Positions 1 to 38,976 of a stretch of DNA of 61,090 bases are shown one piece after another. The first letter of the stretch is position 1, and every line of letters begins with the position of its first letter. Below the pieces are notes generated by a model. The model had not been told where the DNA came from. It searched no databases and saw only the letters and a program-made list of their open reading frames with translations. A program made the translations under genes and the position numbers. The stretch lies in contig JBKHIT010000027.1 in assembly GCA_046538485.1 (NCBI GenBank), positions 1 through 61,090 of the forward strand. Direction: 5' to 3'. This stretch comes from Candidatus Brocadiia bacterium. Its GTDB lineage: Bacteria; Planctomycetota; Brocadiia; SM23-32.

Positions 1-48
1 CGATTTCCGATTTCGTTGATTGTCTCTGATTAACTCCCCCTTTAAAAT

Positions 49-747
49 GGCTGCACACGCGGGGATAGTCCCCTCCTACAGAGCAAAAACTAAAAGTGAG
101 CCATTTGCGTTGATCAGAAATATTGGCACAGCTGGGACTTAGCATAGCCAGAAAAAATGTTTTACCCCAAAATTCGGCTCTGATAGCCGTTGAGAAAATG
201 GTTTAGCCGTAAGAAGCGGTTTTTCACCCCATGGCCCTCCCGCGAGCGGACTGGACTTCAGCCGGAGACTGGAGTTCAGAACGCGGACAATAAACCGGCA
301 GGTCTCGGAGAAAAACAGCAGAACGACCAACGGCAGCTCCGCCTCAGCGATGCGGACCGACAGCTACCTGGCATTTCACGGCATTTGTCCGCCTCAAGTC
401 CCCCTTCGTCCGCCTGAGCGGACTCAGCTGAACTCGAGTCTGCAGGATACGCGGTCGAGAAGCGGAGTTGCAAGCTCACAGAATGATTGACACCAGACAT
501 GAGGTTTATGTTACAACAACCTGTAAAGACTTTTCCGAAGGAAACTTGAGGGATTTGCGCCCGGCTCTGTTCGGGAGTCGGTGGCAATCTCAAGGTAGTC
601 CAGCGCTGTCAAACAGGGAAATGATCCACAGCGCAAAGTCCTCTAAAAGTGGAATACGGTTGCCCCGCACACGCGGGGATAGTCCGTTTTACTTTCATGT
701 TTCCGTTCTCCAGCTAATGGTTGCCCCGCAGTTGCGAAGATTGAACA
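49..747 (+). CRISPR. Degenerate orphan type I-E-like CRISPR mini-array (3 repeats, 2 spacers; spacer 1 interrupted by an insertion)
   Basis: 29-nt repeat GGTTGCCCCGCACACGCGGGGATAGTCCG at 658-686 has the I-E CCCCGC-N4-GCGGGG hairpin. A degenerate repeat starts at 719, giving a 61-bp period and a 32-nt spacer (687-718). A partly deleted repeat GGCTGCACACGCGGGGATAGTCCC lies at 49-72. No cas genes in the window. Confidence 0.75.
98..643. mobile_element. Non-coding composite MITE-like insertion in CRISPR spacer 1
   Basis: Flanked by duplicated CTAAAAGTG (90-98 and 643-651; ends ambiguous by 1 nt). Imperfect terminal IRs: GAGCCATTTGCG vs reverse complement GAGGACTTTGCG. Internal parts recur at 4599-5059 and 43579-43733. 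Confidence 0.7.
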
Positions 748-4765: not shown

Positions 4766-5059
4766 ATGCGGACCGACAGCTACCTGGCATTTCACGGCAT
4801 TTGTCCGCCTCAAGTCCCCCTTCGTCCGCCTGAGCGGACTCAGCTGAACTCGAGTCTGCAGGATACGCGGTCGAGAAGCGGAGTTGCAAGCTTACAGAAT
4901 GATTGACACCAGACATGAAGTTTATGTTACAACAACCTTTAAAGGCTTTTCCGAAGGAAACGTGAGGGATTTGCGCCCGGCTCTGTTCGGGAATCGGTGG
5001 CAATCTCAAGCCAGTCCAGCGTTGTCAAACAGGAAAATGACCCACAGCGCAAAGTCCTC
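4766..5059 (+). repeat. Second copy of the 294-bp repeat at 350-643
   Basis: Gap-free by-eye alignment to 350-643 with about 11 substitutions; both copies end at CAGCGCAAAGTCCTC. Confidence 0.95.
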
Positions 5060-38789: not shown

Positions 38790-38976
38790 AGCCCCCCTGA
38801 TCTGCCGAAATCCTGTTGTCTTCACCGCTGGTTTGTGACCTGCTCCCACAGGCCACTAAGACAATGGTATCCCATGGTATACGCCAGTTCAAGCGGTCCG
38901 ACGGGGAATTTGCGCTGCGGTTTTTCGTGGTTTGGTGAGCATAAGTTTTCTCAACATTTCCACCGTCTGGCGGTTG

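Follow-up and report, generated by a model that had tools for sequence, protein, structure and literature searches.

What kind of locus leaves one intact CRISPR repeat, a degenerate one and a truncated one within the first 747 bp of a contig, with more than half a kilobase of other DNA set between the truncated repeat and the intact one? The question is posed by the window analyzed here, a stretch of 61,090 nucleotides that forms the start of contig C69 in the genome of an uncultured bacterium (assembly of 5.19 Mb in 143 contigs, 88.3% complete), whose family relatives are labelled Brocadiia/Brocadiaceae and whose reads come from microbial-mat and salt-lake metagenomes. Taken together, the observations presented below indicate that positions 1-747 of the window are very probably the trailer end, now decayed, of a type I-E array that was damaged by two independent transposition events, one into a spacer and the other into a repeat.

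All parts of the remnant are described here on the forward strand. The one intact repeat (658-686; 29 nt, with a TTG at 660-662) is predicted to fold into a hairpin of -15.6 kcal/mol and is followed by a 32-nt spacer (spacer 2; 687-718) and by a degenerate, terminal repeat 3 (719-747), which starts 61 bp after the start of the intact repeat, is identical to it at 20 of 29 bases and has lost the hairpin (-3.2 kcal/mol). Beyond it lies the trailer (748-977), which is the intergenic region ahead of a gene for a CtpA-like S41 peptidase (978-2342); a promoter-like site is seen within this trailer at 831-859. On the other side, the 19 nt at 53-71 are identical to those at 667-685 (i.e., repeat bases 10-28) and reveal the 3′ part of repeat 1 (55-72). 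This is followed by the left part of spacer 1 (73-98), the last nine bases of which (90-98) are the first copy of a target duplication, CTAAAAGTG; by a 544-bp insert (99-642); and by a stretch (643-657) composed of the second copy of CTAAAAGTG (643-651) and the final 6 nt of spacer 1 (652-657). Removal of the insert together with one copy of the duplication, 553 bp in all, joins 26 and 6 nt into a 32-nt spacer 1 and brings the register back exactly: the in-register start of repeat 1 is position 44, the distance from there to 658 is 614 bp, and 614 - 553 leaves 61 bp, the period of the array. The reconstruction yields a 32-nt spacer (or 33 + 28) whichever reading of the duplication, from 7 to 9 bp, is taken, with the period extending over only three units, one of them intact. 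A preliminary description made from the letters of the window had claimed this very arrangement, from the 29-nt repeat, the 32-nt spacer, the degenerate repeat at 719 and the 61-bp period to the two copies of the 9-mer and the 32-nt spacer obtained by deletion, and all of it is present in the sequence.

We searched the host genome and 60 relatives for the 29-mer, allowing up to three mismatches (the reversed pattern, used as the control, gave 0 matches), and recovered it in five of the 61 genomes: 103 copies in the relative G011, 34 in G003, four in G005, and one each in G002 and the host itself, with the last base being variable. The spacing is 61 bp in every relative with several copies, and four genomes of the same family hold arrays of the repeat, of up to ~100 units with this period. 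Such recurrence goes beyond what chance would produce. The window repeat differs at one or two bases from those of G011, G003, G005 and G002, and all four of these repeat-bearing relatives possess a gene for Cas7e (PF09344), which in three of them is only a few kb away from the repeat; in G003, the two are on different contigs. In G011, a leader precedes the array, and upstream of it lie cas3, cse2, cas7e, cas5e, cas6e, cas1 and an I-E-type cas2, co-oriented with the repeat; a 542-aa ORF without a Pfam hit is sited where cse1 would be expected. Because a near-identical repeat adjoins the I-E cas operon of G011, and Cas7e is encoded near the repeat in relatives, comparison of the sequences identifies the window repeat as a genuine type I-E repeat, which upholds the type assigned in the preliminary description. 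The genome search that it had proposed gave a single intact copy in the host, and arrays with I-E cas genes in relatives. The order and orientation of cas genes, leader and array in G011 further imply that the cut repeat 1 is on the leader side and the degenerate repeat 3 on the trailer side, such that the degenerate repeat occupies the leader-distal end, as in a type I-E array. That the units are instead dispersed REP-like hairpins lying 61 bp apart by accident can practically be dismissed: palindromic repeat modules are indeed abundant in this genome and only one unit is intact, but across its 29 nt the unit is within one or two bases of repeats that make up arrays of up to ~100 units beside I-E cas operons, and the 29-mer is found nowhere else in the host genome.

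An Rfam scan of positions 1-1000 with E-values up to 10 retrieved no CRISPR-DR family, with two chance-level matches as its only results. A 23-nt core of the repeat is present in 32 loci of a species-representative collection, the hosts of which include metagenome-assembled genomes labelled Brocadiia/Brocadiaceae, along with Dehalococcoidia, Chelativorans, Citreicella and Thermotogae; the repeat type is therefore widespread. As a side observation, the 23-nt core forms arrays with a 61-bp period in distant phyla, comprising several hundred repeats in Dehalococcoidia, and occurs as single copies in some Streptomyces records.

The insert in spacer 1 (99-642, +) is a non-coding, mosaic, MITE-like element: the longest ORF wholly inside its 544 bp is 105 aa, none is transposase-sized, and it is bounded by imperfect terminal inverted repeats and flanked by the 9-bp duplication. 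Its left end, (G)AGCCATTTGCG.TG, pairs imperfectly with the reverse complement of its right end, (G)AGGACTTTGCG.TG. In a BLAST search against the host genome, it yielded 347 HSPs on 85 contigs, which were grouped into 238 clusters; copies cover the ends 20-27 times and the inner palindromic modules ~140-174 times (modules: A, 99-231; B, 238/244-286; C, 371/383-441; D, ~445-564; E, ~540-642). Full-length copies with ~95-96% identity are found at C101:4408-4951 and C97:73124-73665. The ends of the family are sharp, with AGCCATTTGCGTTGATCAG in 27 left alignments and ...CACAGCGCAAA(G/T)TCCT in 20 right alignments, and those of the insert itself (left, AGCCATTTGCGTTGATCAG; right, CACAGCGCAAAGTCCT) recur at ~26 and ~19 other sites, respectively. 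Nearly all copies have a G before AGCC and a C or T after TCCT, and it is these near-constant bases beyond the ends that make the duplication readable as 7-9 bp. Among the 11 long copies with both ends, seven are flanked, no more than one base from their ends, by direct repeats of 6-9 nt (CTAAAAGTG on C69, GGTTTG on C80, GCGGGT and CAAACGA on C97, ACGCTG on C101, CGTTCGG on C102 and CTTACCCG on C114), varying in length from copy to copy, and the other four, on C3, C38, C64 and C110, have no flanking duplication. The right-end 20-mer (up to two mismatches) is present 65 times in the host genome, once each in three of 30 family relatives and in none of the remaining 27; hence, the family represents a lineage-specific expansion.

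A dispersed family with defined ends, the duplication, and the exact return to the 61-bp register together establish a transposon-type insertion into a 32-nt spacer, and the non-autonomous mobile insertion of the preliminary description is thereby borne out. The terminal inverted repeats, the target-site duplication and the many small copies without a transposase gene are the features of a MITE. A cognate autonomous IS with the same termini is missing from the host assembly, in which IS bodies are largely missing and no left/right end pair 800-4000 bp apart encloses a transposase. Could the 553-bp interval be an assembly chimera or a recombination product and not the outcome of transposition? 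The genome is rich in repeats, split into 143 contigs, and the element is multicopy; nevertheless, we consider this very improbable, as the 9-bp duplication falls exactly at the family ends, the register is exactly restored, and independent Logan contigs cross both junctions with 0 differences (26-125 and 576-1000; both from X1, the sequencing run best covering this stretch, which is possibly the sample behind the genome assembly and to that extent not independent of it).

Further right-end copies of the family are seen in the window at 4766-5059 (+), comprising modules C-E and followed by TTGAAT at offset 17, and at 38904-38917 (-). Module B is a palindrome of the form GGACTTCAG - centre - CTGGAGTTCAG, with ~171 copies genome-wide and a centre that is mostly CCGGAGG; at some loci (e.g., G000:C90:41013-41487 for module B), modules B and C alternate in tandem in a BIME-like fashion.

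A second element cuts repeat 1 itself. Contig C69 begins inside a multicopy IS, of which the window retains a 54-bp terminus (1-54, +) that runs off the contig start and ends in ...AAAATGGCTGC at 54. Five other contig ends (C15, C18, C21, C10 and C61) carry these 54 bp with 100% identity, and the shared stretch of ~55 nt resembles a k-mer overlap produced by the assembler at a repeat. The ends of a second group (C118, C11, C59, C74, C87 and an internal one on C123) share the last ~25 nt imperfectly and probably represent the opposite inverted-repeat end of this IS, with six ends of each kind. Bases 53-54 (GC) fit the CRISPR repeat too, yet they are common to all copies of the IS end. The preliminary description had proposed a damaged repeat ending at 72; this stands insofar as 53-71 matches the repeat, but bases 44-52 are the end of the IS and not mutated repeat sequence. 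Assembly breaks at IS ends can in this manner masquerade as "damaged" repeats.

The surroundings of the other copies point to how the IS selects its sites. Fifteen termini end in ...GGCTGC, and 3-4 nt further on, 14 of them display G-N-GGG (exact GCGGG in 11 of the 15); the flank beyond the IS end in the window, ACAC+GCGGGG, is like these other flanks. Two pairs of ends could be matched through complementary 3-nt flanks (CAT/ATG and TTT/AAA), and both rebuild CCCCGC-N3-G(C/T)GGGG palindromes, one of which is in a module-B repeat centre. The flanks of the termini and the rebuilt palindromes thus indicate that the IS inserts into the loops of GC-rich hairpins with a duplication of ~3 nt, its copies being consistently found in short GC-rich palindromes. 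The position of its terminus in the window places the IS in the loop of the hairpin formed by the CRISPR repeat itself (CCCCGC-ACAC-GCGGGG). We also considered module-B centres in general as the target and rejected this, since CCGGAGG is the centre of most of the ~171 copies and the genome contains just 18 occurrences of the strict hairpin motif.

As for the transposase, the interior of C123 (~320 nt) is homologous to C32:1-770 and shares its N-terminus with a 168-aa HTH ORF encoded there. Homologues of this ORF are ~600 aa long and combine HTH_32 with DDE_Tnp_1, and its comparison with the NCBIfam IS families gave none over the cut-off. From this related copy, we infer a transposase of the HTH + DDE_Tnp_1 group, the body of the IS being unassembled. 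An IS110-type (bridge-RNA) element was set aside because the two groups of ends are inverted repeats of each other and the protein encoded by related copies is of the HTH/DDE_Tnp_1 type. A search of the final 200 nt of every contig for the other (5′) half of repeat 1 was negative, and the IS terminus gave 0 matches both in 30 family genomes and in an exact scan of metagenome contigs. A promoter-like TTGTCT-17-TAAAAT is seen within the terminus at 20-48 (+), facing outward toward the CRISPR remnant. More than 12 groups of contig ends in this genome have identical termini, and its many multicopy IS/repeat families lead to assembly breaks; at least one other such group (C141_s, C33_s and C70_s) also adjoins short GC-rich hairpins.

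Does the remnant belong to a system that still works? The searches for I-E cas genes that the preliminary description had called for gave no match to Cas7e (PF09344) or Cas6e (PF08798) in the 5.19 Mb of the host genome. In tblastn searches with ORFs (≥100 aa) drawn from the cas neighborhoods of G011, G005 and G002, no cas gene was hit; the hits in the host were flanking housekeeping ORFs only, none of them on C69. The sole Cas1 of the genome belongs to a complete, apparently intact type I-C locus (G000:C38:1-9928, L062; cas3, cas5, csd1, cas7, cas4 and cas1), the array of which has at least 36 repeats, reaches the contig start and uses a repeat unrelated to that of the I-E remnant. The I-E cas genes of a functional locus are accordingly absent from the 88.3%-complete assembly. 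In all likelihood, the remnant no longer functions, with I-E cas genes undetected and the host's own type I-C system built on another repeat. Its designation as an orphan in the preliminary description is likely, though not proven, given that the contig starts inside the array and the assembly has the above degree of completeness.

The contrary view is that the array extends past the IS and is part of a larger I-E locus, possibly active and with leader and cas genes, that is unassembled or unbinned, and we regard this as improbable. The start of the contig inside the IS and the incomplete genome leave room for such a locus, as does the general tendency of arrays and IS elements to assemble badly; moreover, only two of the six IS end pairs could be matched, so many IS-flanking pieces are missing. 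Yet no I-E cas homologue is found in 5.19 Mb, the terminal repeats are decayed, and the depth of the sequencing runs speaks for a solitary remnant. In X1, the summed contig depth over 647-1000 is flat at 28, corresponding to one single-copy contig even over the intact repeat, whereas it rises at the repeat position to up to 5319 and 1718 in two other runs, X2 and X3. As the pile-up of the repeat is visible in these two, further repeats would have shown in X1, which has no additional copies.

The remnant is also seen beyond this one genome. A related strain represented in two salt-lake runs of another study has kept it from repeat 2 through spacer 2 and repeat 3 into the trailer (X3: 659-1000, with nine differences and one gap; X4: 658-832), which shows the remnant to be shared and not newly formed. 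The contigs of this strain break off at 658/659, at a repeat present in very many copies in these samples, and are uninformative on the empty site. The uninterrupted allele for which the preliminary description had suggested a search did not come to light: there is no joint skipping 99-651 among the joints listed for the contigs of four runs, and an exact scan of metagenome contigs for spacer 2 plus flank gave 0 matches. Its suggestion of a phage or plasmid target met with no success either, whether the query was spacer 2 or the first 26 nt of spacer 1. Phages gave only partial matches (E ≥ 1) and plasmids none; exact scans of IMG/VR with 22 nt of spacer 2 and with these 26 nt of spacer 1 gave 0 matches; and comparison with the host genome and the arrays of the fetched relatives produced no match beyond the locus itself.

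The position of the 544-bp element within the array raises the further question of whether its target was chosen. Across the family, a TTG starts 16-18 nt after ...TCCT at 25 of the 48 right ends with enough flank (expected, 4.6%; binomial P ~4e-21), as against a single occurrence at this offset in the outward flanks of 32 left ends. Pairs of -35/-10 hexamers scoring at least 9/12 at offsets 14-20 follow 16 of the 48 right ends; the corresponding figures are 0.46% for random positions in the genome and 1.2% for flanks after shuffling. Within 400 nt downstream of 48 of 51 right ends there is an ORF on the same strand (100 aa or longer), the random figure of 71% being a weak control. All seven copies with target duplications have the TTG at offset 16-18, so that the hexamer belongs to the target DNA on the far side of the duplication rather than to the element. 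The right-end spacing fits target choice by a -35-like motif. Dozens of loci (e.g., C31, C38:46309, C73:45313, C100:36135, C127 and C132) are seen to have the right end ...CAGCGCAAATTCCT located 16-18 nt upstream of TTGACA-N17-TAnnnT pairs. At the CRISPR copy, the TTG is that of repeat 2 (GGTTGCC), with an offset of 18 relative to the element's right end, and the sequence downstream attains a best promoter score of 7/12, which is not that of a full promoter.

These patterns tentatively raise the possibility that the element family picks a -35-like TTG(ACA) target, and that the CRISPR repeats, with their GGTTGCC and stem-loop, served as accidental decoys for both transposons. The competing explanation, that both insertions landed by chance and the likeness of the repeat to the targets of the two elements is coincidental, appears rather doubtful. 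It can appeal to the ~4.6% expectation of a TTG at 16-18 for any single site, to the low promoter score and to the principle that one site proves no targeting; it has to reckon, however, with the family-wide excess of TTG at this offset, including every duplicated copy, and with a repeat stem that matches the flank consensus of the IS exactly.

To our knowledge, no bacterial MITE family has been described as promoter-guided. A literature search worded without naming the -35 hexamer, which included the accessible text of a 2024 review (PMC10969869), also found none. Possible promoter-guided targeting is the only part of this analysis that may be new: a fixed distance from element to hexamer, with the duplication in between, would, if confirmed, provide a testable example of promoter-guided transposition in bacteria. 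This side result on the TTG offset may matter more than the CRISPR remnant itself.

Returning to the decayed type I-E array with its two insertions, the history of the locus may be envisaged as follows. The 544-bp non-autonomous element, presumably mobilized by a transposase acting in trans, entered spacer 1 and duplicated 7-9 bp of its target. In an independent event, the multicopy IS inserted into the 4-nt hairpin loop of repeat 1. The leader, further repeats and cas genes upstream of the IS point would have been deleted, or else would be part of what is unassembled. The preliminary description had the first of these insertions inactivate the spacer; the spacer is split, but the statement goes too far, as the array may already have been dead. 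The locus offers a well-resolved case of array death, with cas loss, decay of the terminal repeat and invasion by mobile elements, in an array of the kind that standard finders would miss.

Several known systems share one or the other of these features. IS6110 belongs to the IS3 family, and the array of Mycobacterium tuberculosis is of type III-A. In the DR locus of that organism, IS6110 splits a direct repeat with a 3-bp duplication, and deletions of repeats as well as of cas genes are associated with its copies (PMC7708916). The splitting of a CRISPR repeat by an IS is the point of likeness to our locus (PMC7708916); the IS seen here differs in that it apparently belongs to the HTH + DDE_Tnp_1 group and in that its duplication is evident only from 3-nt flank pairs at other sites. 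Insertion of IS elements into cas genes is likewise described as a route to the loss of immunity (PMC10359306).

Targeting of REPs or hairpins is reported for members of the IS3, IS110, IS4, IS256 and IS5 families, such as IS1397 and ISKpn1 (IS3), IS621 and ISPpu9 (IS110) and ISRm22 (IS4) (PMC1525189). The IS in repeat 1 is like these in being multicopy and sited in short GC-rich palindromes, including the palindromic centres of the mosaic family (PMC1525189); it is distinguished by a target that is the stem-loop of a CRISPR repeat and, the element being unassembled, its family membership is deduced from a related copy. Certain Tn7-like transposons recognize CRISPR repeats and enter the spacer at a fixed position (PMC11837452), and the 544-bp insertion resembles them in being in a spacer at a set distance from the repeat (PMC11837452). 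However, the Tn7-like elements are large, autonomous, TnsD-guided and specialized for arrays, unlike the short non-coding element here (PMC11837452), the family of which is normally located upstream of promoter-like sites, such that the array looks like an incidental look-alike of its usual target. With its mosaic, intergenic palindromic modules upstream of genes, this family resembles BIMEs/REPs and Correia-type MITEs (PMC2817692, PMC10969869). In known MITEs the promoters are internal (PMC10969869), whereas here the hexamers are outside the element, beyond the target duplication; the 2024 review of prokaryotic MITEs, in its accessible text, describes promoters inside MITEs rather than MITEs placed by promoters, and does not mention CRISPR (PMC10969869).

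Of all these precedents, the closest is Haloquadratum walsbyi HBSQ001, where the MITE HqIRS37 interrupts a spacer of a residual CRISPR without cas genes, and leaving out the MITE gave back the ancestral spacer (PMC3119063). The present locus differs from it in several respects: H. walsbyi is an archaeon with another CRISPR type, its remnant has kept five complete spacers and the leader, its sister strain with an intact locus and the target of its rebuilt spacer have no counterpart in our searches, and the second element that cuts a repeat is a feature of the bacterial locus (PMC3119063). Common to both are a cas-less remnant, a MITE in a spacer and an original spacer that can be recovered from around it (PMC3119063). 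The decay of CRISPR by mobile elements is already documented, and the locus presented here is a clean, fairly ordinary example of it.
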